From: Bilabrum cf. latius
Lineage: Eukaryota
Direction: 5' to 3'
Assembly (NCBI GenBank): GCA_965178125.1
Contig: OZ237751.1
Location: 868,001 to 932,000, forward strand
Length of the DNA stretch: 64,000 nucleotides
Part shown: positions 15,704 to 51,074 of the stretch, piece after piece
How the letters are laid out: the number at the start of each line of letters is the position of its first letter
Numbering within the stretch: position 1 is the first letter of the stretch
Program-made: the position numbers and the translations under genes
Notes under the pieces: model-generated
What the model was told of the DNA's origin: nothing
The model's input: only the letters and a program-made list of their open reading frames with translations
Databases searched by the model: none

Positions 15704-18700
15704 TCACCACCGCCTCATCCGCCGCGCGCTGGCAGATCTAGGCTTGGGCTTGGAGCTGGCTGGTGGCGGGGCCCCACCCTGCATCGCATCGATGACCTCC
15801 AATCCGCCGTCAGAGCTTGCGCGCCCGCCGGCGACCGTCCCCGATGCCCGTCTCACGCGCATGCCACGCAGCCATCCGCCACCAGCAGCAGCTGCACTTT
15901 CCCCGGGCTTCCTGAGCAACGACCCCTCCAGGAAATCATTGGTCTGCGGGATGACCCCGCCGCCCCTTCCCCGACTCATGGCTCGCCCCGCGCTCCGGGA
16001 CCGTCCTTTTCCAACCTCCCCATCCACCTTTTTCTCCTTCTCCTTCGCTCCACCAGGGGCCACGGCGGTGGCAGTGGGCAGAATCAGACCCAGTTCGATA
16101 TCGCCTCGGGCAGGACCATTTGCGCGGGAACGAGAACGAGAACGAGAATGGGACTGCGACCGCCCGGGGCCTCCTGGCTGGCGACTCACATGCCCGACGC
16201 TAGTGTTGAACGAGGCCTGTGCTCCGCGGGCCAGCGAAGCCGACAGTGCGGCAATATTTGCAGCGAGATCCCGTTCCGCCCCGCCATGGACACGCACTGG
16301 CCCTCGCCTGGATGCAGGCCCAGTAGAGGCAGACCGACGCACGGGCTTTGGAGCCGTCACCGGCATCAAGGCCTCGGGGGATGAGTCTTTAAACACCATG
16401 GGATCTGCTTTGCACACCAAGGCGCCCACACGAGGCGCCTGATCCGAGGGTGCATCGCCCGAGGACCACGCCACTGAAGTGCACCCATTCTTTATGAATG
16501 TGGACGTCTGATCATCCTTTCTAGCCTCGAGCTCGTCCATGGACGTGTTGCGGAACATGGCCCGCTGCTCGGATCCATCCCCGTCCACCCCACGCCCATG
16601 CCCATGCTCATCGTCGTCAGCCTCGAGCTCGTCCATGGACGTGTTGCGGAACATGGCCCGCTGCTCGGATCCATCCCCGTCCACCCCACGCCCATGCCCA
16701 TGCCCATCGTCAGCCTCGAGCTCGTCCATGGACGTGTTGCGGAACATGGCCCGCTGCTCGGATCCATCCCCGTCCACCCCACGCCCATGCCCATGCCCAT
16801 CGTCGTCAGCCTCGAGCTCGTCCATGGACGTGTTGCGGAACATGGCCCGCTGCTCGGATCCATCCCCGTCCACCCCACGCCCATGCCCATGCCCATCGTC
16901 GTCAGCCTCGAGCTCGTCCATGGACGTGTTGCGGAACATGGCCTGCTGCTCGGATCCATCCCCGTCCATCCCACGCCCATGCCCATGCCCATCGTCGTCA
17001 GCCTCGAGCTCGTCCATGGACGTGTTGCGGAACATGGCCCGCTGCTCGGATCCATCCCCGTCCATCCCACGCCCATGCCCATGCCCATCGTCGTCAGCCT
17101 CGAGCTCGTCCATGGACGTGTTGCGGAACATGGCCCGCTGCTCGGATCCATCCCCGTCCACCCCACGCCCATCGTCGTCAGCCTCGAGCTCGTCCATGGA
17201 CGTGTTGCGGAACATGGCCCGCTGCTCGGATCCATCCCCGTCCACCCCACGCCCATGCCCATGCCCATCGTCGTCAGCCTCGAGCTCGTCCATGGACGTG
17301 TTGCGGAACATGGCCCGCTGCTCGGATCCATCCCCGTCCACCCCACGCCCATCGTCGTCAGCCTCGAGCTCGTCCATGGACGTGTTGCGGAACATGGCCC
17401 GCTGCTCGGATCCATCCCCGTCCACCCCACGCCCATGCCCATGCCCATCGTCGTCAGCCTCGAGCTCGTCCATGGACGTGTTGCGGAACATGGCCCGCTG
17501 CTCGGATCCATCCCCGTCCACCCCACGCCCATGCCCATGCCCGTCGTCAGCCTCGAGCTCGTCCATGGACGTGTTGCGGAACATGGCCCGCTGCTCGGAT
17601 CCATCCCCGTCCACCCCACGCCCACGCCCATGCCCATGCCCATCGTCGTCAGCCTCGAGCTCGTCCATGGACGTGTTGCGGAACATGGCCCGCTGCTCGG
17701 ATCCATCCCCGTCCACCCCACGCCCATCGTCGTCAGCCTCGAGCTCGTCCATGGACGTGTTGCGGAACATGGCCCGCTGCTCGGATCCATCCCCGTCCAC
17801 CCCACGCCCATGCCCATGCCCATCGTCGTCAGCCTCGAGCTCGTCCATGGACGTGTTGCGGAACATGGCCCGCTGCTCGGATCCATCCCCGTCCACCCCA
17901 CGCCCATGCCCATGCCCATCGTCGTCAGCCTCGAGCTCGTCCATGGACGTGTTGCGGAACATGGCCCGCTGCTCGGATCCATCCCCGTCCATCCCACGCC
18001 CATGCCCATGCCCGTCGTCAGCCTCGAGCTCGTCCATGGACGTGTTGCGGAACATGGCCCGCTGCTCGGATCCATCCCCGTCCACCCCACGCCCATGCCC
18101 ATGCCCATCGTCGTCAGCCTCGAGCTCGTCCATGGACGTGTTGCGGAACATGGCCCGCTGCTCGGATCCATCCCCGTCCACCCCACGCCCATGCCCATGC
18201 CCATCGTCGTCAGCCTCGAGCTCGTACATGGTCGTACTAGGTTTTCCAATGCTGTACTATGGTTTTAGTGCCTTGAAACCTTCGGTGTCCGAATCCGTGG
18301 CGTTGTCTTTTCGATCGCGATTATCCATACTTGGAGACGTACACTTGAGCGTTGTCCCTTTTACTACGCGTGGGCTGACCCGCTCTTTGAACTTGGACTA
18401 GGAAAGGATACCCAACTCACTGCCCGCGTCGGTGAGGTGTCGAGGAGGGAGCAGCTGCGGCGATTGTCCGCTGGAGATCTCCATCGCCATGAATCGATCT
18501 GTCCTGCGGTGGTCGGGCCTTCGTTCATTCTAGCTATGAGGGGCCTTGACGTGGGTGCCAGTCGTGGGTTCAGACACACGGGATAATGACCTTGTGTCTG
18601 ACAGAGCCGAAAGCTCCCTTGATCGACCGCTGGGTACGTTTTGCTATGTCTGTTGCGTCGATGTGCTGATAGCCGTAGGCTAATGCCAACGGCCTGCACG

Positions 18701-21700
18701 CTCGTGCCCCTGCTCCTGCCCTCGACCATGCCCCCGCCCCACAGAAGCAGACCGATGGACTCCGTGATTAGCAACTGCACGCTCGTGCCCCTGCTCCTGC
18801 CCTCGCCCATTCCCCCGCCCCACAGAAGCAGACCGATGGACGCCGTGATTAGCAACTGCAAGCGCATGCCCCTGCTCCTGCCCTCGCCCATTCCCCCGCC
18901 CCACAGAAGCAGACCGATGGACTCCGTGATTAGCAACTGCACGCTCGTGCCCCTGCTCCTGCCCTCGCCCATTCCCCCGCCCCACAGAAGCAGACCGATG
19001 GACTCCGTGATTAGCAACTGCACGCTCGTGCCCCTGCTCCTGCCCTCGCCCATTCCCCCGCCCCACAGAAGCAGACCGATGGACTCCGTGATTAGCAACT
19101 GCACGCTCGTGCCCCTGCTCCTGCCCTCGCCCATTCCCCCGCCCCACAGAAGCAGACCGATGGACGCCGTGATTAGCAACTGCACGCTCATGCATGGCAA
19201 CAGGTGCAGCTTCCGTCACATGGGCTGCCTTGGGCTCATGCACGGCAACAGTTGCAGCTTCCGCCACATGGGCTGCCGCGGGCTCGTGCCTGGCAACAGG
19301 TGCAGCTTCCGTCACATGGGCTGCCGCGGGCTCATGCACGGCAACAGGTGCAGCTTCCGTCACATGGGCTGCCTTGGGCTCGTTCCTGGCAACAGGTGCA
19401 GCTTCCGCCACATGGGCTGCCGCGGGCTCGTGCCTGGCAACAGGTGCAGCTTCCGTCACATGGGCTGCCGCGGGCTCGTGCACGGCAACAGGTGCAGCTT
19501 CCGTCACATGGGCTGCCGCGGGCTCGTGCCTGGCAACAGGTGCAGCTTCCGTCACATGGGCTGCCGCGGGCTCGTGCCTGGCAACAGGTGCAGCTTCCGT
19601 CACGTGGGCTGCCACGGGCTCGTGCCTGGCAACAGGTGCAGCTTCCGTCACATGGGCTGCCGCGGGCTCGTGCCTGGCAACAGGTGCAGCTTCCGTCACA
19701 TGGGCTGCCGCGGGCTAGTGCCTGGCAACAGGTGCAGCTTCCGTCACATGGGCTGCCGCGGGCTCGTGCTTGGCAACAGGTGCAGCTTCCGTCACATGGG
19801 CTGCCGCGGGCTCGTGCCTGGCAACAGGTGCAGCTTCCGTCACATGGGCTGCCTTGGGCTCATGCACATGGGCTGCCGCGGGCTCGTGCCTGGCAACAGG
19901 TGCAGCTTCCGTCACATGGGCTGCCGCGGGCTCGTGCCTGGCAACAGGTGCAGCTTCCGTCACATGGGCTGCCGCGGGCTCGTGCCTGGCAACAGGTGCA
20001 GCTTCCGTCACATGGGCTGCCGCGGGCTCGTGCACGACAATTGGTGCAGCTTCCGTCACATGGGCTGCGGCGGGCTCGTGCCTGGCAACAGGTGCAGCTT
20101 CCGTCACATGGGCTGCCGCGGGCTCGTGCACGACAATTGGTGCAGCTTCCGTCACGTGGGCTGCCTTGGGCTCGTGCACGACAGGAGGTAGAATCCTCCC
20201 TTTACTACCGGAAGCGACTGCAATATTCAACTGTATCCCGTCGTGGTCGTCCCGCTACTCTGAGCCTGCAGCATCGCTGCGCTTGGAACGGCTGTCGCTG
20301 ACGTCCGAATCTAGGTCTAGGCTGACCTCAGGCACGTCTTGGAGTTCGATCTCATCCGACGAAACCAGGCCGTTGCAGGCCCCACCTTCTGGCTTTCTCT
20401 GGTTGTGTTCAGTCTCGCCTGCAGACGACATGCTGCTGTCAGTCTCGTGCTCCTCCGTTCTGGCGACAGTCTCATGCGCCCCCTCCTTCTCGCTAGCCAC
20501 CTCATCAGCGCGTGCAGGCGATTCGCACGGCGCATTGAACAGCGCGTCTTCGAAACTGTCGTTAGGGATCCTGCTCTTTGATCGCAGCTGCTTCGATGGA
20601 AATCCGGCGTCATTAGCGCCGCCAGTGCTTCCATTCCCACCTTCTCTCTACTTGTACTACTGTCCCTGCTCCTCATCCCCAGCGGGGAACTGAAAGTAGT
20701 CCTCCGAGGCGCCAGGGAGAATCGCCGGGTCATCATCGTCAATGGACGTGCGCGCCTCTTCGATGATGCTAGCAGAAGTGCCCCGAGTTTTGCGGCTCCT
20801 ATCGAGAGCCTCCTCGTCCGCGAACTGAAAAAACTCCTCCGAAGCACCGGGGAGTATATCCTCATCCTCATATTCGTCTGGATCAGCAGCATCCCCTGCT
20901 TCAACGAACTTGTGAAAGTCTTCATGTGCGCCGGGTAGCATCATGGGCTCCCCGTTCGGAGGGGCTGGCCTGGTGACGCCTGACACCCCCCCGCTACGGA
21001 CTCATATCTGTAATAAATGTTGTTACTATTTCACAAGGCTTCTTATCTTTTAATAAATCTTTTAAATGGTCTTTACACCTTGCTATGTAATAGGTTTGAC
21101 CTTCAAAATAGACGTTCCAGTTTATCCTTCTATAATAATCTTTCGGTTGTGTAGCTTTCAAGGTTCCATTTTCCCATTTTAATAATTCCATTCTGTATAT
21201 ACCTATAATAAATATATTTTTTAAGTCAATTTAAACGCTCTATAACAATTTAAAAATAAAAGCGCGTTTGTTCCATTTGTGAAGGTATAAGCGAGGATAA
21301 GGGGGTATAATGAAGGTAGTTTAGAAGGTTGAATAATGGAGTCCCATAAAGTGATGGAACTTTTGGCTAGAAAATGGCTAGAGTCCCATAACACCTTCAC
21401 AAGAGGGCTACATCCACGTTTTGCTAAATAATACATATACTAATACGCAATTTGTGGATATGGTCATCGTATAGAGTTTTATATATAATTGATTTTCTAT
21501 AATTAGAAGGATAAAGCAGTTATATGAAGTAGCAGTATGAAGAGGCTCACCTTGACTTTTGGAGCGACTAGCGAGAAAAGGAATGGAGAGAGGGAAGAGC
21601 TTTAGCTCTGACTGAACGTAATTATTGATGATGTTAATCATCCTTAACCGAAGGGAATAAATTTATTTATTACCGTAGCGGGGGGGTGACATGGCCGTGG

Positions 21701-22428
21701 TGCCTGAGGCAGCGGGAGCGGCGCTAGCAGCCGTGCCAGCGGAAGAGTAGCCCGGGGCCAGCTCGAGGGACCCAGACACGGAAGTGGACCCAAATCGAAG
21801 GTCTTGGGGCGCGTCAACTGGCGCAACCTCTTCGATTCCGGCTTCCTCGCAGCAGCCGCCCTGACACACCGCCACAGTGGACGCAACTGCAACCAAGGCC
21901 GCTGCGCATGTGCATGCCGCCACCGCAGCGAAGGCCGGGATATTCGCGTCACCAGCAGTAGTTTCCTATGAATCCTCGCAGTGTTTACAATCCGCTTCTC
22001 CGTACTGTCCCTAGTCCGCTTTGACTGTCTCGACGACAATGCTCATCGTGCGGCCACTTCTTAGGCTAGTCCCACCAGGTCGGTGAGCAGGTCCTCGCAA
22101 GCTACTTTCTATATGCTACACTTTACATGGTAAACGTTGGCTTTGAAGAGATCGGACTATCGTCGTGCCTGTGCAAACAGTATTGCTCAAATGTTGCGCA
22201 GATGCTGACGGTGCATCGTGCTGACACCTGCAGAATCAAACAAACATAACCAAACCAATGAATATAAATAGAGGATATGCCATACTGATGCAAGATCGAC
22301 AGCATGCTTGAAATCGCCGGGAGAATAGGGTAGGGCACGCGCAACAGCTACGTCAAGACTGTGGAACTTCCACGACAATGAAATAGCAGCTATACAAACC
22401 AGTTCTTAAGGATCAGTCCACATGTGAC
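15704..22428 (-). CDS. Large tandem-repeat protein of unknown function (~2000 aa), interrupted by the TIR element at 20986-21686; 5' exons uncertain
   Basis: ORFs 21663-21923 | 20657-20986, 20255-20500, 19715-20230, 18680-19699 and 15704-18229 form one frame with TAG read-through and removal of the insertion. TGA at 15704. Probable intron 22228-22285 (GT..CAG). All repeat-unit length variants are multiples of 3. Confidence 0.65.
16524..18225 (-). repeat. ~18 tandem units of 84-102 bp (mostly 96 bp) encoding MDELEADDDGHGHGRGVDGDGSEQRAMFRNTS
   Basis: Near-identical units starting gcctcgagctcgtccatgg; indels are always codon-sized. Confidence 0.97.
18696..19190 (-). repeat. 69-bp coding tandem repeat (~7 copies, HERAVANHGVHRSASVGRGNGRGQEQG-type unit)
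   Basis: Direct tandem units visible in the sequence. Unit length was estimated by eye and is approximate; the translated unit suggests about 81 bp. Confidence 0.85.
19190..20183 (-). repeat. 39-bp coding tandem repeat (~25 copies, HVTEAAPVARHEPAAA-type unit)
   Basis: Repeated unit ggcaacaggtgcagcttccgtcacatgggctgccgcgggctcgtgcct (48 bp as written; unit size and copy number are approximate). One unit carries GAG->TAG at 19715. Confidence 0.85.
20986..21686. mobile_element. 701-bp AT-rich mini element with 14-bp TIRs and 5-bp TSD, inserted in a coding exon (virophage/Polinton-like remnant or MITE)
   Basis: Left end CCCCCCCGCTACGG (20986-20999) is the exact reverse complement of the right end CCGTAGCGGGGGGG (21673-21686). 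TGACA is duplicated at 20981-20985 and 21687-21691. GC drops abruptly. Excision restores host frame ...TTAMS|GVTRPAP. Confidence 0.93.
20994..21191 (-). CDS. 65-aa AT-rich ORF inside the TIR element (probably a truncated viral-type gene)
   Basis: MELLKWENGTLKATQPKDYYRRINWNVYF... is protein-like, has AT-rich codon usage and is preceded by an AT-rich leader with AAATTGA about 40 nt upstream. It ends at a TAG inside the TIR. Confidence 0.5.
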   Translation of the reverse strand: MELLKWENGTLKATQPKDYYRRINWNVYFEGQTYYIARCKDHLKDLLKDKKPCEIVTTFITDMSP

Positions 22429-22789
22429 TTATGAATCATGTCTTTTGCGGATATAATGACGTAACACGGCTAACACTGCATCCATCCTACGTGTCAATCT
22501 ATTTTTCAACAGTATCAAAACAACTTTTCCAAGCGTTCAGCCGCTTGACTCTCGCAAAATGATGGCTACTGACCCCAGCTGGACCATTCTTACAAGAAAT
22601 AAGTTAGAATGAGTATCACAAAATACCGCATCAGGGACTCATCGAGGCTCTCAAAGACATGCGTCACTGTTGAGTGAAGAGCCCCAACTTGCGACCACAT
22701 TGACGCAAGCTCCGATCGCAAGAGTCTACAGAACGAGCGGTGCCTCACAGTGGACCTGCAAGCCAGCCTGGCCCAGGTGATTGGCACCG

Positions 22790-41866: not shown

Positions 41867-44800
41867 AAATAAAAATCGCGCTCGGCCTCGGGAAATCCTC
41901 CCGAAGTGACTGAGCGGTCACGCTGGTTGATACACGCCGCGCATGGTCGGTGTAGAGAGAGAGAGAGAAAATAGAGTTTTCGCACGCAATTCAATACCAG
42001 AGACAATCCGAGGACTGCCACCAAAGTAACGCGCACCTTAACAGGGGACCCAGCTGTACCCGCGTTGGCGGAGCCAGTCAGGACCTGAAAAGGCCTCTGA
42101 AGAAATAGTTGGTCTGGTTAAGACCGATACATGCCTAGGACCCGTGTCCTAAGCGCACCGCGTTGAGATCTCCTGGGAGTCAGACCCAGTCGAACGTCCG
42201 CAGTGAGGGAGCATGCGCGAGGAAGGCCTGGCGAGGCGTGAGGCGTTCAGCCTCTCGCCACCAGACCGCCACATAGTCCGCCTCTAGGACTTGTTGCCTG
42301 CTCCAGATCCGGGAGCGTGCTAGCCTTGCCGTTCCCTTCGCCCAGATGCGTTCTAGCACCTGAAGCTCCTTGCTGAGGGCGCAACGGCCCAGCGTTCCTG
42401 TCATCCACTCTCCGATGAACTAGTTCTCGGAGGGATTCAGTATGTGTCCGAGCGGGTGGGCTCGGATTGCAAGGTCTCGGGCTGTTGGGCTGCCCGAGCT
42501 GAGTTGTTCAGCTACGCACAGTTGGCAGGACTACAACCCCTCGATGGCTCGTCCGAAGCTCTCATTGGCCCTCTGCTACAAGCGTCGGATTGCACGTCGG
42601 CACCGTTCTTGGAGTTGTTCGAGGGTGCCTTGGACGATAGAGAGCTCCAAGGAGTCTGCGTCCCCTCGGTGTTCCTGTGTCAGCACCTGCTCCGTTTTGA
42701 CGTGTTCCATCCATAGTGCTCTCCCCACTGCCGTGGGTGCCCAGGGTACGTCCGTGTGCGTGGCTTCCGCGCGCATCATTTCGGCCTGTACCGAGCGTTC
42801 TCCTCTGTGGTGCATGGTCCCTTCCCGAGGGTAACGCCCAGTGAGCCATCGTAGGATGAGGCGGCCGTCTCGGCCTCGCCAGGTGCTCCGTGCTATCGCC
42901 GGCATGGCCGAAGGGCCGAGGATCCGGGAATTGTCCAAACCGATGCAGCTCTGTAGGTATTTCATGCCTACAGAGTCCTCGTCAAACTTTGCCCAGGCGT
43001 CTGTCGCTACCGGGTGCATCGTTTCTGCTTCGCGCAGTATACCGGCAGCGTGCGTGCTGGAGCTCGACTTCAGCAGTGCAGTCGCGTCCCGTAGGATATA
43101 CGGGCACAGCCACGAGGTGAACGTTCGTTTCAGCTGCTTGCGGTTCTTGGTGTTGAAGATCATCTGGAAGACGGACTGGTCTCGTGCGCCATGTTGGCAC
43201 CTGTAGACTGCGGCCATGTTCGCCATAGGTCCCTGGGCACTAGGTTCGTGCTTGACCATGTACCACGCGGTTAGCTGCATGTGGGCAGGCGTGTCTCCGC
43301 TCAGCAGCACCAGTGAGCAGCCGTACGCCTGTGAGACAGCTCTGGCCATCGCGTCGGCCGGCCAGACCAGCGCCCTGACCGTGTCCTTCGGCAGGAAACG
43401 GCCACCTCCTTTCTTAGGAAGTCGGGGGGCTGCTTCGACCAGGGCGGCCCTGGCACAGTCTAGGACCTCGTCGACAATGTTCAAAGCTGCCTTGTTCCAG
43501 ACTATACCTGGTACGTAGGTGCATTTCACTGTCTTGCGTTTTAGCTCCTGCTCGAAGCCTGCTGGTGCCGCTGAGAGGTGGAGGTCTTGCAGCACCGTCC
43601 CGTAGACTGCACTGTACAGGATCGAGGACAGCTGTGCAAGGCTCCAGTCAGAGTTCACGGCTGCTTGGCAGATGTCCGCAATGCTTCGTCTTGCCTTGCC
43701 GGCTTGCCTCTCCAAGTGTTTCACTGGGTCCAGGACGTGGAGCTGTCTAGTACTTCCGTCGGCCATTTTGACCGGTGCCCGTCTGGTGTGTAGACGGAAG
43801 CCGAGGTAGTCGTACTTGTGGACCAGTCGGATTGGCTCCAGTGGTGCCGTGGCTAGAGTGCCAGGAAGTTGCTCTTGGATCCTGAGATTGAGCTCCTCTG
43901 GGGTGAATGCAACTGCACGTCCGCTTTCCACGTCGTCGTCAGTTGCTTCGAACGCCTCACGGGTCAGTCCGGTCGCCATCACAGCTGTCTTGCTCGTGTA
44001 GCCATTGCTGACTGCTCTTACGCCCAACTCATGGCCAGACTCATGGTGTCCAATGGAGAGCACTGCTACAGCCGTCAGCGAGCCGCTCTTGCACAACATA
44101 GTGACGCAGGTGTCGTCCGCGTACAGCGTCTGTGGCTCCTTCTGTGCGATGTCCCAATCGGCTGTCAGTGGTGCCGCTTGCGGTCCTGCGCACACCTGCC
44201 TGACGTACTCGTTCGCAGGTACCATTGATACCGCGAAGCCATCTGGGGAGATGGGATCTCCCTGGCATGTCCCCTTTCCTCGCTCGAATGGTTCCGATCG
44301 GGTGTTGCTTGGGCGGTGGTACACCTCCGCTTTAGCTTTCATCCTATTGACGAATGCACTCGAAGCGGTCGCGCTCAGTCCAGCCTTCTCTAGCGTGTAC
44401 CGCATGATAGGCCATTGGACTCGGTCGAATGCTGCTTTCAAGTCTCCGAACAGGAGCACGAGGCCCTGCTTCCCCGCGGTGAAGGTCTGCTGCAGGATCT
44501 TCAGGATTGCGATCACTCGGTCACGGCGCAGCGTGAAGCCGAACTGCGAGGCTCCTTTCGTTTGGCGTTGAGCCATGACTTCCTGGCAGTTGCCCAGCAG
44601 GATGATGCCCAATACCTTTGCAATCACGTCTGCGTACTAGATGCATCTGTAGTCACTGCATCGGAAGTCACGGTCGTCCGGCTTGCCTTTGAAGGCTGGT
44701 GCAATGAAAGTGCGCAAGAGGGTCAGCGGGTACTATCCGCACACCATTGCGCAATTGTGGATAGCTTGAAGGGCCTTGAGGAGTGTCAGAGGGTACTTGC

Positions 44801-47800
44801 GTTCTCCGTCGGCGAAATCGAATGTGAGTCTGATTGCGCGTGTTGGCACCCCGCTCGGCCCCGTAGCCTTTCCGGACTTCAACTACTTGATTGCAGTCGA
44901 GATGTGTTCCTCGGCAGCGTCATCAGTCACCAGCATGCCGATTTTCGGGGATGTTGGCATGTGTTGGCCCAGGACCTCGATGAATCTTGAGAGACCCTCA
45001 TCAGTGGACGTGTCCACTGTGTTGGCCGTTGCGTTGGTAGCGCTACTGGAGTAGTATGCCGCGTGGGCGTCCACTGCCTCCTAGGCATTGGAGGTCCGTG
45101 TCCCGTCTTCGCGGTCCACCATTGCAATAGCTCGTTGCTTTGATCTTCTGGCCCCGAGTTGGCTCGATATCGTGCGGTACGCCTCGCGGGCAGGTAGGAC
45201 CTTCAGAGCTTGTTGGAGTGCGTGGGCATCGCAGCGGATACGATCTCTGGTGAGACGTGTCACTGATATCGTGTCACTTCCTGCAGCTGCAACTACTCGT
45301 TGAAGCACCATCTTGTTCGCGAGGTTGCTCGGTTGTAGGTCTGCGGGGGCCAGGGAGGACAGTGCAGTCGGGAGCAGATGCTTGCCCCAATCGCAATTGG
45401 TCGCTACCCTAGCCTGTACCCGTCGTCGCAGTTTGCTGATCCTTTTGATCATGGCATTGGCCTCTGGGCACTTGCCAGACCCAATCTCCCGTATTGACGT
45501 CTCGCGCCTGTCTGCGTGCTTGCTTTTGATCTTACGCAGCAGGGAGGCAGCTGTGTCCCGGATGCAGACAGTCTCGGTCAGAAGGGATGCGTCCTTGTGT
45601 CGCTGGAGTCTTGCTCTTTGGGCCCTTTTTACCATGCGAGAGATCTTCGCACGGTGCTGGAGGCGGCTGCGTGGGGCTGCTTGTTGGCGCTGGGCTGGTC
45701 CAACCGCGGCCTCGCAGGCTTTGGAGTCACAGTCTGCCAGCGTGGAGACCAGATGTTCCAGTACTGTCGTGGCTTGGCCAAGGATGCTGGCCTTTTCATC
45801 TCCTCCCGCTCCCGAGTCTTCACCTAGTGTCAGGGCTGCTGTGCTCGCCTGCTTGCTCAGCTCCATCAGCTATGGCTATTCGGCCAGCAACTGTGCCATC
45901 TTCCTGCGGTATCGGCGGACCTGGGCTTTGGTACGTGGTCTCCGTAGCTTGTCTGGCGCCGTGTCTAGGGTAGCACTTGGATCGTTGTAGACTTGTGACC
46001 TGGTAGTCTCTACCCTCATGGCTACGGGTGAGTGATCCTAAGATCCGGGATTTCGAAGGACTGCACCTCCTGTCCAGAGCGCTGACCCAGCGAGGCCCAC
46101 GTCTAGGCAATTACCTCCGCCATGTGTTGGCATCCACGGGGTCCGAAGGCTCAGACACGGTTCACCGTCCTCCCTGGTGGGGGCGTCCTCCATGATGTCC
46201 GCTTCTCGGTGCGTGTTCAGGTCGCCAATCAAGACGGTCTGATCCAGGTCAAACTCGAACCTTTGCCCATTGCTTGTAGTCCAACCTGTTTGCATGCACC
46301 TAAGTAGGCGCTTATAGTCCCCGCGATGCTCGCCGTCGAGGGGGTTGTAGCATCCAACTGCGTGAACTGTGCGGCTCCCTGCGACTGTCACATTGACGAT
46401 GAGGCAGTCCCGGATGTCCTGGGGCATATCTGCTGGCTGAATGGGGCAGAACTTGGTCATTAGTCGTGAGTTTGTGTTCCAGACCGCCGCAACCCCATGA
46501 GTGCCTCCTTCCGTGGGTGTTAGCCACACGCCTCTGTACGTCAGGTTTGGCACTGCAAGTGGCAGTAGCTTCTGGTCCATGGACGAGTCAGAGCTTCGGC
46601 CGTACTCCGTCATGAACAGCAAGTCAGGGGCTTGCGTTAGTTGGAGTGCACGCTCGATGGTACTCAGTTTCCTCGACTTGTTGACATTCAGGTGGCCGCA
46701 GCGGAATTCTTGGGGGCGATGTGCCGCTTCCCAGGTAGTGGTCCAGTGCTTGGCAAGAGTCATTTCGTTCTCAGGAGTCATCTACTTGTGTGAGATGGCA
46801 CGGACTGTCTAGGCTGGGTCATCTCGGGCTTCTATCTCATGTCGCCGGTACTCTCGGTGTTCCCTGATGCGTCGTGATGGTGTAATGGTCCGTCTTGTCC
46901 CCGCGTATCCGACTGTGGACCGGTTCAGGTAGTCGCGGTTGCCGATCGCCGCTGTCTCCGGCCGACCTCGGCGGTCAGAGGAGAAAGCTGGCACCTCCAG
47001 TGTGCCGTTCTTACATTGTCTGTATAGTTCTCTGTCGTGCTAGTCCACGAGCTCGGACTCGCTGCCCTCACAAAGGCTCTTGAACAGGCTCTCCGAGGGG
47101 AACATGTCGTATGCCACTCTTGGTAGTTCCCGTCCGGCAATCTTGTCGAATGATCCTGCGTTGATCGACTTGGCCAGGGCTGCACGCTGCGCCTTCGAAG
47201 GGCTGCCCCAGAATCCTACTGCTGCGATGAACTTGTGTCCAAGACGTGGGCCTGGAGCTTTGTCGAACTTCGCCGGTGCGTAGGAGCCCAGGGTTAGACG
47301 TCGGAGTGTATTCGCAGAGATGTCCTCCCTGGTACCGTTTGCTACGCCGTCGACGTACAGGTATGGAGTCCTCTGTTCGCTGGCCATGGCCGTCGGCGAG
47401 GCCTTCATCGTGATGATCGAAGCGGCGTGGTCGATGCTGAGCAGGAGGACTCGAGAGGGAAGCTTCAGGTCAGGACCGTCGATGGCCCTTCTCATGCTGT
47501 GTAGGAGGCTGGATACGCCCATGTCTGGGCTGGCCACCATTGGTCTGCACCACGTGTGGTCGTATCCATCCGCCGAGGCAAGGCGGGCCACTGCTGTCAG
47601 CATCCTCCCAATGGTGGTGCACCTATTTGCCGAAACGATGCAGTTGTCCGAGTCCTACAGGCGGCATGCCTACTGCATTGAGAGGGGGACAGCGCTGACG
47701 ACCTGAAGGGCAAGCGTATGACACTGTTTAGCTGGGAGCCTGTACGATCCGACGACATGGTCTCCGGAGCTCTACCAATTCAGGAGGGCCTCTCCAGACG

Positions 47801-50800
47801 GGATGGGGCCCCCGTTGAGCTCGGCCATCGTCTCCACTGCAGACTTCATGTCCTCATCGGATGGGTGCTGGCTCGCCAGGGTGTCTTCCGCCTGTTGCAG
47901 CCTTTTCTGCCACGTTGTAGTTGGTGCCCAAAGTTCTGCACTTGACGCTGGGACAGGCGGTGCGTCGTCGCGTGTCAGGGCCACTGGTTCGTGCGGGAGG
48001 TCGAGCTCAAGTCCGTGTCTTGCGTAATCCAGAGCAGTTGAGTCTTGGGCAATGCACGCGGCCGAGGGTTTGCTCAGCAATATCCGGGGCATCGTTCGAG
48101 CGTTGACCAGCGCCTGAGGTCCTCTACGTGGCTAAACTGATGTTGTCTGCATTCCCATGAGGAAGTAGTGACCTCCAGTGGTATCAGTCCCATCGAGAGT
48201 CTGGGCACGCATGGCTACTGCTGTCGTCATCCTGGCGGGCGTGTGTAACCGCTGGGTGACTAATGGTCGGGCGAGGTATAGTGTTGCCTTGGCGGTACCC
48301 ACTGTCAACATAGGGATGTGTACTCCGTGGACTGCCGCTACGTGTCCCAACACACACTCAGCTGGTGGCCAGTAGTGCGAACTGCGCCACCATGGGATGC
48401 ACAGGGGTGCTACCTCCGATCCAGTCGTCGTCGTCCCGGCCATGAAAGACAGGCTGGCGTTGAAGTGTGCCTTCATCCACTGGAGTGTGTTGCCCGGGAG
48501 TGAGGCAGTAACTTCACTGCTGAAGAGGAACTTGCCTGGGACGTAGTCCGGCTCAATCTTCGTGATCCTGACGAAGTTACCAATGGCACTCTCCATGATT
48601 GCTAGAGTAAGCACCACAAGATCGCGTTCCAGATGCTGTAACGATGAGTTCTCTTCGCGGTCTTCCGCTGGGCCGAGGCTTTGTAGGATCTCTTTGGTCT
48701 TGTCTTCGTCCAGCTCTCGAGTCGAAACAGCGTCCGCGAGTTGCTTAATCTTGTCTTGTGGGTAGCCCTGCCGGGCCGCGTACAAGGACAGACATTGGGG
48801 TGCATACGGGTGTGCCCTCATGATGCCTCGCAACAGTGGGAGAGTGTCGTGATGCTCTGCCGTGGTGGGAGTGCGTACCTCGCCTCCATCACCGGTCTCC
48901 TACTCAGCGGCGTCTCCAGCCCCTGCTACCGCGTGTTCTGCCGCTGCTCCTCCTGTGGCTGCGTTTGATGCGGTGGTTGTGGTCCGTTCATGGGCGATGT
49001 GTGCTTTGCATGATTGGACGATTGAACTGACGAAGGCAGGGACGTGACTTGACTGGACCCCCACAAGTGTGTGGATGGAGTCCAGCCAACATAGGCCGTT
49101 GGTGCACGTCTTGGTCCTCCGGGATGACAATTTACTCGTCGGGATGTCAGTGGTGAGGGCCTGGATGCTGGAGGGGTTGGTGGCGAATGCATCGGGATCC
49201 TTGTTGCAGTTCGCCATCATGTCTGTCACCGTGTAGAGTTGAGGAGTGGTTCTTACGATCGGTCTTGCTTGGTCCCTGGTTGCCTGCGTCCCACCTTGCT
49301 GTGCTTGCCGCCGTGAAGGTCGTTGAGTCTTGGGCTGAGGGGGCTGGGCTGTCTTCTGGTTGCTGCGTGCTTGGCGCTGGCTCTGGGAGCGCCGCTGTTT
49401 ACCTCCCTTGGTCGACTTGGTGCAGTGTGCCCGAAATAGTGCATGTGTCCTAGGTGGAAGGTAGCCTGCCTTAACAGCCTGGCAGAATTCCGAGTCGGTC
49501 AGCTTCTCCGAGTTCCAAGTCCCGACCAAGTTGTGGTCGTTGCGGTGTCGCATGCCCTTCTCCTTCACTGCGGCTTTCAGCGTGGCGGGTAGTTTCTCAA
49601 TCAGCGGGGTCTTAGGTGGCAGCATTCCGTATGCTGCTGCCTTGAGGATCGCCTTGGTGTCTGGGTACTTCTCCGACTTCCAAGCTGCTAGCGGGTTTGA
49701 GCAGTGGCGAAATCCTTGCTTCTCAAGATTCATCCTCGTCTACGCATTTGGTGTCCGCTTCTCCAGTTGCAATAGAGATTTCCTCAGTTGTGAGGTCTAC
49801 TGAGGGGTGTTGCTTCGGCCTTTGTTCGTCGCCCTTGGTGAGGCAGTCCTGCCGGGCCCGCGTGAACTTGCCTGTTGCAGACTAGATGGTGCTGCTGAGG
49901 TCTTGGGCTTTGGCTTCTGCTGTTCTTTGCGTCGTTTCGCTGCTTGGCCGCGTTTACTGGCTGTTAGCCAACCATCAGCTGGAGACGAGGGCGACTCGTC
50001 GCCGCTTTCAACCGGTTCTACGATTTGAACGCCAGATTGGAGCTGGCGTCCGAACTGATGGTATCCCATTGGGGGCAGCCCGATGAACACACTACCTCCG
50101 TGGCTGGTATTGCCATGGTTGGTGTTCCCAGAGAGTTCGGGGTTCGCCTGCTGGTTCTGAGGAGGTGGGGTTGTCGCGGGCATCACCGCTGCTGTCGGTG
50201 CTGCCTGTGCCACCAGTGCTGGTGCAGGTGGTGCTGGTGCAGGTGGTGCAGGTGGTGCAGGTGGTGCAGGTGGTGCAGCTGGTGCTGCTGGTACTGCCGG
50301 TGCTGCTAGTACTGCTGGTGCTGCTGGTGCTGGTGAAGCCTCCGGGGAAGCTGATGCGGTTGGCCGCGTGCCAGGCGGGTTATCGGTGGTCTGTTCGGCG
50401 CGCTCTACCGCAGCAGTGCCCGTCGAGTTCACGGGCTGAGCATCTGCATTGGTAGTCTAGTGGTCTAGTGGCTGGGCCGGTGCCGTCATCTTGTGCGTGG
50501 CCACCCTTCGGCGCTTGTTCATCTTGGACTCATAGTACGTGAGCGCCAGATCTGCGATCCAGATCCAGAAGAAAACGAAGCCCGCGACCAGGGCTGTGCC
50601 GGTAAGCCCGTACATTAGAACTCTTCCCATAAATCCTAGATCGCCCGAGATGATCGTCCAGGTCTGGTGATCGCCATGGATGTGCATCGGCGAATTCAAG
50701 TTGTGTCTGGTCCAGTCCTCCCGGTAGTGCGAAGGTTCAGCGTTGCGATGGTCGCGCCAGCGCCTTTCACGAAAGGTGGTTTCTTCTTCTTGCATCGTAT

Positions 50801-51074
50801 TGGGGGTATCCGGTGCTGGGGCTCGGTTCCAAGTGGGTTCCGTGTGCACCGGGTTTGAACAGTGGGATTGCTGGGAGAGTGGCTACATCTCTTGCTCTAG
50901 GGTGCTTGACGCTCCCAGTACCGACAAAGCCCCGACTATCAGCGCTATTGATGCCCCTTTTGGGCATTTCAGCAAAACAGCCCCCATAGGAGCCTAAAGG
51001 GTAGCGGATCCTCGCAGCCCACTCGTCACGGTCGCAGGTCTGATTAATCACCAGTAGACGCTACCGTAGTCCCA
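41867..51074 (-). mobile_element. Full-length APE-type non-LTR retrotransposon (~9.2 kb)
   Basis: Contains an APE+RT ORF. Both termini are duplicated in the 39004-39175 element. (TC)n and (ATTTTT) tracts lie at the 3' end. No clear flanking TSD was seen. Confidence 0.9.
42180..50987 (-). CDS. Single ~2935-aa retrotransposon polyprotein: signal-like N-terminus/TM helix, Pro-Ala linker, putative cysteine protease, AP endonuclease, reverse transcriptase, C-terminal CxxC
   Basis: ATG 50987 to TGA 42180 in one frame with ~22 TAGs and no TAA/TGA. APE motifs: GHLNVN, LLFMTE, VLIGDLNTH, NCLD, DHSPV. RT motifs: AIK.LKSGKATGPSG, QFGF, DLKAAFDRV, GTCQGDPISP, LYADD, YLG. Confidence 0.9.

Follow-up and report, generated by a model that had tools for sequence, protein, structure and literature searches.

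A 701-bp insert in the genome of Bilabrum cf. latius: a probable recent deletion remnant of a mavirus-like endogenous virophage, interrupting a host gene

The described systems closest to the locus considered here are mavirus and the endogenous mavirus-like elements (EMALEs) of Cafeteria burkhardae, i.e. AT-rich virophages bounded by terminal inverted repeats (TIRs) in a GC-rich host (PMC8547959), and the integrated elements of Bilabrum cf. latius resemble them in this respect. The likeness to the EMALE gene content (PMC8547959) covers an rve (retroviral-type) integrase with a chromodomain, a primase/helicase, a major capsid protein (MCP) and a penton protein, and probably also a protein-primed DNA polymerase B (pPolB), an ATPase and a protease. 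Some EMALEs respond to a giant virus (PMC10945749), and how the load of EMALEs is limited is an open question (PMC8547959). The present analysis deals with a 701-bp insert in a window, i.e. the whole stretch of 64,000 nucleotides analysed, from Bilabrum cf. latius (contig OZ237751.1 of assembly GCA_965178125.1, positions 868,001 to 932,000). This insert is, with high probability, what a recent deletion left of a mavirus-like endogenous virophage; it is present in one copy and interrupts a host gene. In what follows, G000 designates the host assembly (48.6 Mb, 111 contigs), C numbers its contigs, L numbers stretches of it, and an expression such as C9 copy the long element named by its contig; the window corresponds to C17:868001-932000.

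The insert lies at 20986-21686 between two copies of TGACA and ends in perfect 14-bp inverted repeats, CCCCCCCGCTACGG and CCGTAGCGGGGGGG, opening with C7 and closing with G7. Its GC content is 0.345 (interior 0.324), that of the flanks 0.58 and 0.64, and that of the window 0.62. The 14-bp repeats, the C7 run, the TGACA target-site duplication (TSD) and the AT-rich interior of the original prediction were all re-measured and confirmed, and the small open reading frame (ORF) with an AAATTGA leader is indeed present on the minus strand, with AAATTGA at 21232-21226. The 14-bp repeat is perfect within the insert but represents only the survivor of the left end, the TIR of the family being about 425 bp long. 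Aligned with the long elements of the same genome, the insert consists of 14 bp of their left end fused to the final 687 bp of their right end, with the following features:

20981..20985, plus strand: left TSD, TGACA
20986..20999, plus strand: surviving left virophage terminus, 14 bp (C7GCTACGG), common to the paired long copies
20999..21000, no strand: internal deletion junction, blunt, without microhomology, bridged by contigs of runs X1 and X3
21000..21191, minus strand: stub of the terminal DUF285-repeat gene, first 64 codons, ATG at 21191
21220..21235, minus strand: family upstream motif of the TTTAAA-n4-TTAAA type, containing AAATTGA, putative virophage promoter
21262..21686, plus strand: complete right TIR, about 425 bp (bases 277-701 of the insert against the opposite ends of long copies, 92-99.5%)
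21663..21686, minus strand: TIR tip in the host frame, PPRYGNK then TAA (21665-21663), with AATAAA at 21671-21666
21687..21691, plus strand: right TSD, TGACA

At the junction, the parent left end would go on with TAATAA and the parent interior is preceded by TAAAGC. The DUF285-repeat gene measures 366 amino acids in the C30 copy, and its stub in the insert ends ahead of the repeats; with UAG read as glutamine (Gln), the stub frame continues through the terminus to a TGA at 20922 (89 amino acids), out of the frame of the host ORF. Core morphogenesis genes do not occur in the 701-bp piece, which holds only this 64-codon stub, and it is therefore a remnant of a virophage rather than a member of the group; an Rfam scan of 20900-21800 gave no match. 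The insert is real: contigs of runs X1 and X3, which may be source data of the assembly and are not independent samples, span the left flank, the left TSD and the internal junction (20100-21174) with 0 differences, and an assembler join is therefore excluded, while a contig of run X5 spans the right junction (21365-22225). Taken alone, the terminal motif of 12-13 bases is not above chance (9 matches at ≤2 mismatches, reached in 3 of 100 shuffles; 50 exact matches genome-wide vs. 88 for a control pattern), and the insert is considered non-random because of its paired ends, its TSD, its AT-rich interior and its 89-98% identity to long copies.

A homology search of the assembly with the 701-bp query returned at least 47 matches, and copy counts are lower bounds because only 40 of 105 candidates were scored. 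Bases 15-701 match the ends of at least 11 long copies (89-98%) and bases 277-701 also match their opposite ends, from which a family TIR of about 425 bp is read (left and right ends align over 421-427 bp in the four copies aligned end to end). The 50 matches to the terminal motif comprise 36 arranged in 18 pairs (17 long copies and the 701-bp insert), 3 unpaired ends and 3 tiny scars, besides one that probably ends another virophage type and 7 set aside as chance since they have no virophage interior. Long elements sharing the termini, sought as the original prediction proposed, thus amount to 17 paired copies of 25.0-57.5 kb, 12 of which measure 25-28 kb; nested inserts were seen in two of the five longer ones, with GC-rich inserts in C27 and C30 and a nested second virophage in C30 as well. 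A TSD of at least 5 bp was recorded by script in 17 of the 18 pairs, and on inspection by eye all 18 are compatible with 5 bp, the exact length being ambiguous because of the C/G runs at the ends. An amplified MITE (miniature inverted-repeat transposable element) or otherwise spread mini-element was rejected: the 20999/21000 junction has a single match in the assembly at ≤2 mismatches and only one of the 47 matches covers bases 1-701. Of the two options first proposed for the insert, a non-autonomous mini-element or a deletion remnant, only the latter holds up.

Four long copies were read under UAG=Gln, and 42 ORFs from them were scanned with Pfam. The MCP matches PDB 6g45, the mavirus MCP, with an E-value of 3.7e-8 over residues 92-620, mavirus MCP entries being its sole PDB matches, and the penton protein matches PDB 6g41 (E 6.5e-24) as well as a Pfam V18-19 family (E 5.3e-7, above the cut-off), entries 6G41-6G45 being mavirus structures (PMC6048507). 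Besides, an rve integrase (E 8.9e-12) with a weak chromodomain, a Prim-Pol/helicase (Prim-Pol E 7.2e-16) and terminal DUF285-repeat genes are encoded. A Walker A motif in the candidate ATPase and a Q-x8-CG motif in the candidate protease were seen, in the gene order ATPase-protease-penton-MCP, and the pPolB candidate is a 499-amino-acid ORF with the motifs YDINSHYP, NSLWG and HTDS recognised by eye. Several points weigh against this assignment: the Pfam match of the MCP (MCP_V20_C, E 0.0037) is below the cut-off, and in the parent type Pfam matches none of the genes named ATPase, protease and pPolB, which owe their names to sequence motifs, to their place in the gene order and to a weak P-loop match in PHROG (E 1.1e-6). 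The pPolB homologue of the nested second type matches DNA_pol_B_2 with an E-value of 1.3e-5, below the cut-off. The best full-length public relative of the MCP is 32% identical. The gene set fits the definition of virophages in PMC9952930; the commonest copy length falls within the 15-45 kb range of double-stranded DNA virophage genomes, and the rve integrase, TIRs of 421-427 bp and 5-bp TSDs are mavirus-like. Judged by their predicted proteins, the long partners are mavirus-like endogenous virophages because they encode an rve integrase, MCP, penton and primase-helicase, along with a putative ATPase, protease and pPolB, which upholds the mavirus-type origin first proposed. Polintons (Mavericks) have a Polinton-type capsid, 6-bp TSDs and ends of the AG...TC type. 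With a capsid and penton of virophage type, C-run/G-run ends and 5-bp TSDs, the present family was not retained as a Polinton. The parent virophage presumably depends on a giant virus; a search of the host genome for capsid genes of nucleocytoplasmic large DNA viruses gave no match, but control queries gave none either.

Regarding the host gene, both flanks of the insert are single-copy, and once the element and one copy of the TSD are removed, the downstream ORF is in frame with the upstream exon in a continuous minus-strand ORF, as follows:

15707..20980, minus strand: remainder of the host ORF downstream of the insert, 1758 codons, with tandem peptide repeats
21692..22227, minus strand: host exon on the upstream side of the insert, single copy, about 180 codons with three TAG in frame
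22228..22593, minus strand: host GT-AG intron, donors at 22593 (X6) or 22573 (X5)

A Pfam scan of the downstream ORF gave no match, and the upstream exon shows one hydrophobic stretch by eye. GT-AG joints occur at 22228-22573 in X5 and 22228-22593 in X6 and in neither X1 nor X3; X5 and X6 are taken as RNA-like solely on these grounds, no run being recorded as RNA. The two donors, 20 bases apart, both keep the frame, from ATG 22587 (X5) or ATG 22631 (X6), and may give forms without or with a start that resembles a signal peptide by eye (ATG 22631). The X5 contig is spliced upstream and then runs unspliced into the TIR as far as 21365, where the host frame gains seven residues before a TAA. The host protein is thus predicted to be cut to about 200 amino acids instead of about 1950, because the transcript enters the TIR and meets TAA after seven codons. 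The X5 and X6 contigs have no cover over 20088-21215 and their ends differ, and silence of the downstream half of the gene is not claimed. One flank is common to run X6 and the C22 copy, so that X6 probably comes from the same strain and provides no population test.

How the remnant arose can be approached from its bases. None of the 687 interior bases is private, each being common to at least one other copy, and the event is therefore recent; over bases 15-438 the insert does not differ from the C30 and C27 copies, and its TIR is a patchwork of blocks that it has in common with other copies. Three tiny scars elsewhere in the genome also keep both virophage ends:

C27 (L054:996-1031): scar of 36 bp, TSD ACACA
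C25 (L053 near 1076): scar of 33 bp, TSD AGATC
C10 (L049 near 3318): scar of 25 bp, no clear TSD

These scars suggest that deletion in place happens in this host genome, and deletion after integration is favoured over integration of a ready-made mini-genome. In the proposed sequence of events, a virophage of about 26 kb, mavirus-like and of the UAG=Gln type, would have inserted into the second exon of a host gene present once in the genome, with duplication of TGACA, presumably through its own retroviral-type integrase; an internal deletion sealed by blunt end joining would then have removed about 97% of it, leaving the 14 bp of the left end, the DUF285-gene stub, the motif upstream of it and the right TIR in full. 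The remnant encodes nothing complete, has not multiplied and acts as an insertion mutation in the host gene. Three observations weigh against this scenario: none of the resident copies matches all 687 bp as an exact parent would (best 97.8%), the asymmetric break without microhomology fits no specific repair route, and neither an empty allele nor an orthologous full-length copy was seen that would tell whether deletion came before or after integration. Contigs of the four runs used, out of ten listed, contain no empty-site joint, but contigs drop rare forms and cannot show the absence of a joint.

The intact terminal motifs, the perfect 5-bp TSD and the lack of private substitutions would equally suit a defective mini-genome, i.e. 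a 701-bp unit produced by a template jump during protein-primed replication and integrated alone with an integrase supplied in trans, which would make the insert a nascent MITE-like or satellite element with both integrase ends kept. Such a route would find parallels in TIR-flanked truncated EMALEs, read by Hackl et al. as having regenerated their TIRs (PMC8547959), and in a Halocafeteria preprint that allows integration after gene loss (10.64898/2026.07.28.741278). We nevertheless deem it improbable, as only one copy exists and as the scars of 25-36 bp, probably too short with their two ends to have integrated as such, are sufficiently explained by deletion in place. The recent deletion remnant is likewise preferred to an introner-like domestication, in which the remnant would be spliced out from a GT at the TIR tip (CG|GTAATA) to an AG made by the TSD (TGTCAG|GC), keeping the host frame and adding four residues. 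The sequence permits such an in-frame splice, as worked out by hand, and host introns are GT-AG; however, the X5 contig, itself spliced upstream, runs unspliced past the TIR-tip donor for 322 bases, no element-removing joint occurs in the contigs of the four runs (subject to the limit just given), and the acceptor would lie behind a run of G, whereas the one used by the host at 22228 is T-rich, which leaves this scheme very doubtful.

The partial EMALEs of Cafeteria, mostly assembly artefacts (PMC8547959), raise the question whether a long virophage bounded by repeats was collapsed during assembly, but those lie at contig ends whereas the 701-bp insert is internal, and single contigs of two runs cross host flank, TSD and junction, so that a collapse is hardly credible. 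As for a MITE of an ordinary DDE cut-and-paste transposon, or DNA of organellar or bacterial origin, the short TIRs, 5-bp TSD and AT-rich interior do look MITE-like in isolation; yet the partners encode capsid, penton and rve integrase, none of the 42 ORFs of the four long copies matches a cut-and-paste transposase, and all 687 interior bases align to virophage ends. The probability of such an origin is negligible, and neither a DDE transposase in full-length partners nor an organellar or bacterial interior, the two outcomes named beforehand as contrary to a virophage origin, was encountered. The recent deletion remnant is retained in what follows.

The second aspect of this locus is the genetic code. 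Long ORFs of the window are open with TAG as Gln and not with TAA as Gln, and seven of them contain 96 TAG in 11,854 codons, a count that is partly circular as they were picked for openness. A single-copy host tRNA gene with a CUA anticodon, one of 6 pattern matches, lies at G000:C23:907602-907684, minus strand (L100:1489-1563); its arms, which we take to be Gln-like, make it probably the Gln decoder of UAG, in agreement with the host code first proposed. The parent virophage type uses UAG as a sense codon: in the C9 copy, 22 of 23 ORFs have in-frame TAG, with 103 TAG, 175 CAA and 21 CAG, and the stops are 19 TAA and 4 TGA. When close copies are compared, TAG is invariant in 80 columns, and where another codon takes its place the residue is most often Gln (26 of 61 counts, against 8 for Lys and 5 for Glu); in addition, a Gln nine residues before the protease Cys is encoded by TAG in three of seven proteases and by CAR in the four others. 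UAG would accordingly stand for Gln in these genes, against which counts the noisier residue opposite TAG once distant types are added (Gln 37, Glu 22, Lys 21). An MCP search of the assembly gave 43 matches of several types, most interrupted only by TAG "stops" and four by none. One resident type is UAG-free: 10 ORFs of its C36 copy (3,940 codons, 138 Gln) contain no TAG, sense or stop, where about 47 would be present at the parent's share. Copies of this type are found at G000:C36:465567-484826 and on C21, C40 and C1. The forecast of a standard-code virus avoiding UAG thus fails for the parent family and fits a neighbouring resident type, because only the latter is without TAG.

In a quick tree of 48 MCPs, which is unrooted, unfinished, with long branches and without named references, the types that use TAG occupy long branches apart from one another, and the TAG-free type is joined with C37, one of those using TAG; this hints at repeated recoding among virophages. 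A search of 19 virophage loci found no tRNA. A more far-reaching reading would combine these data with an origin as a mini-genome: the UAG=Gln code would act as a host-range lock, the parent, C3, C11 and C37 MCP lineages being each filled with UAG and untranslatable in standard-code hosts while the UAG-free type near the C37 type stays portable, and the 701-bp unit would be an in-trans-integrated defective mini-genome of a code-locked virophage, with a live promoter, and the first copy of a satellite. Were it true, a helper giant virus tolerant of UAG=Gln must exist; taken as a whole, we regard this reading as unlikely.

AAATTGA had been interpreted beforehand as a mimivirid-type early promoter, which is not borne out: in the C9 copy it precedes 1 of 22 genes, its 21 occurrences are not enriched (shuffle mean 13, maximum 25), and it is part of the longer, family-specific motif. 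The latter precedes 8 of 22 genes, including pPolB, primase-helicase and both DUF285 genes, and has only 8 occurrences; its shuffle control overstates the case, because the motif was defined on the same sequences where it was counted. TCTA, the late motif of mavirus and CroV, precedes only 7 of 22 genes in this copy.

The host itself is read as a stramenopile, probably a bicosoecid, as judged from marker genes. Its EF-G has its named best matches in Albugo (66%, with 57% of the length covered), in Cafeteria (65%) and, at 68%, in a protein recorded as Symbiodinium sp. KB8, a record that may stem from a co-cultured flagellate. The main 18S rRNA gene has 1,700 bases, such shortness being, we assume, a Cafeteria trait. 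A second, longer 18S rRNA gene of 1,802 bases lies on a separate contig (G000:C95:6099-7900, L085) and possibly belongs to another eukaryote in the assembly.

Several further observations were made on the long copies and their surroundings. The nested virophage of the C30 copy (L033-L035) is of a 38% GC type, and AT-rich flanks occur at the C9, C6, C2 and C22 copies. GC-rich retroelements within virophages (L043:4176-9998, L031-L032, L067:6218-9940) recall the Ngaro insertions of EMALEs; they also read UAG as sense, and one has an RNase H-like RVT_3 match. In the window, an ORF that is open for 2,955 codons when UAG is read as Gln (42183-51047, minus strand) matches a reverse transcriptase and is probably a non-LTR retrotransposon. 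A cassette of about 1.7 kb and 50% GC lies just inside one TIR (L038:4850-6590), also in the C33, C34, C6 and C2 copies; its ORFs of 239 and 153 amino acids gave no Pfam match. The inner TIR segment (21320-21485 of the window) recurs intergenically in long copies at 77-85% identity and is a possible terminator or promoter module. In the C33 copy, an ORF of 261 amino acids follows the MCP gene (L040:5027-5812), with a GIY-YIG-like start by eye and no Pfam match, and it does not occur at the corresponding place in the C9 copy. The 13-base terminal motif also turns up near a different virophage type (L077:4693, G000:C37:164692), which suggests an integrase end sequence shared between types. Searches able to find close relatives only gave no exact TIR match in viral_contigs, no MCP relative by a word-based search, and none by pattern scan in viral_contigs, the 16 pattern matches in metagenome_contigs yielding 0 confirmed.

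The remnant illustrates how virophages are lost, i.e. by near-total deletion with both ends kept (701, 36, 33 and 25 bp), as well as the cost to the host, since the gene is still interrupted after the virophage has gone. The chief interest, however, lies in the family to which it leads: mavirus-like virophages with capsid, integrase and candidate protease genes that depend on UAG=Gln occur together with a type free of UAG in a probable bicosoecid that has a CUA tRNA. It thus becomes possible to test whether the genetic code limits the host range of DNA viruses of eukaryotes. Because these genes need UAG=Gln, standard gene calling would miss such virophages or rate them as decayed. A literature search that covered few subscription papers found neither a mavirus-type virophage nor a bicosoecid with UAG=Gln. 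MITEs and introner elements are short, non-coding, bounded by TIRs and TSDs and located inside coding exons, and so far the 701-bp insert is like them; it differs in being single-copy, in having a viral parent and in that no removal by splicing was seen in the contigs of the four runs.

Compared with mavirus and EMALEs, the Bilabrum elements share short TSDs (5-6 bp in mavirus, mostly 3-5 bp in EMALEs; PMC8547959) and, with EMALEs, target sites in exons (13 such sites have been reported), GC-rich retroelements nested inside them and truncated copies that keep their TIRs (PMC8547959). Unlike complete EMALEs (5.5-21.5 kb; PMC8547959), the parent measures 25-28 kb, the remnant 0.7 kb and the scars 25-36 bp, and unlike EMALEs in general, the genes are open only with UAG as a sense codon and DUF285-repeat genes stand at the terminus; mavirus differs in turn, the MCP here being distant (E 3.7e-8) and TCTA scarce upstream of genes. 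As truncated TIR-bearing virophages are already known, the remnant is the small extreme of a known decay product, and equally small remnants may be contained in the supplementary tables of the Cafeteria (PMC8547959) and Halocafeteria (10.64898/2026.07.28.741278) studies. The virophages and Polinton-like viruses of Halocafeteria seosinensis likewise include decayed copies without core genes, some with TIRs and TSDs, as well as nesting (10.64898/2026.07.28.741278); the term "stop codon" is absent from the main text of that study (10.64898/2026.07.28.741278). Regarding the code, reassignment of UAG alone to Gln has been recorded in Iotanema and in some ciliates (PMC11687900), one giant-virus metagenome-assembled genome fits code 6 (PMC13524828), and an ochre tRNA has been noted in a virophage (PMC6905037). 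The endogenous viruses of Streblomastix strix are the precedent for viruses on the reassigned code of their host, being integrated DNA viruses for which TAA and TAG both stand for Gln (PMC10120064). There, the MCPs are of the Metamonada group (PMC10120064), whereas those of Bilabrum are of mavirus type and UAG alone is reassigned; unlike Streblomastix strix, moreover, Bilabrum holds recoded and UAG-free virophage types side by side in one genome.
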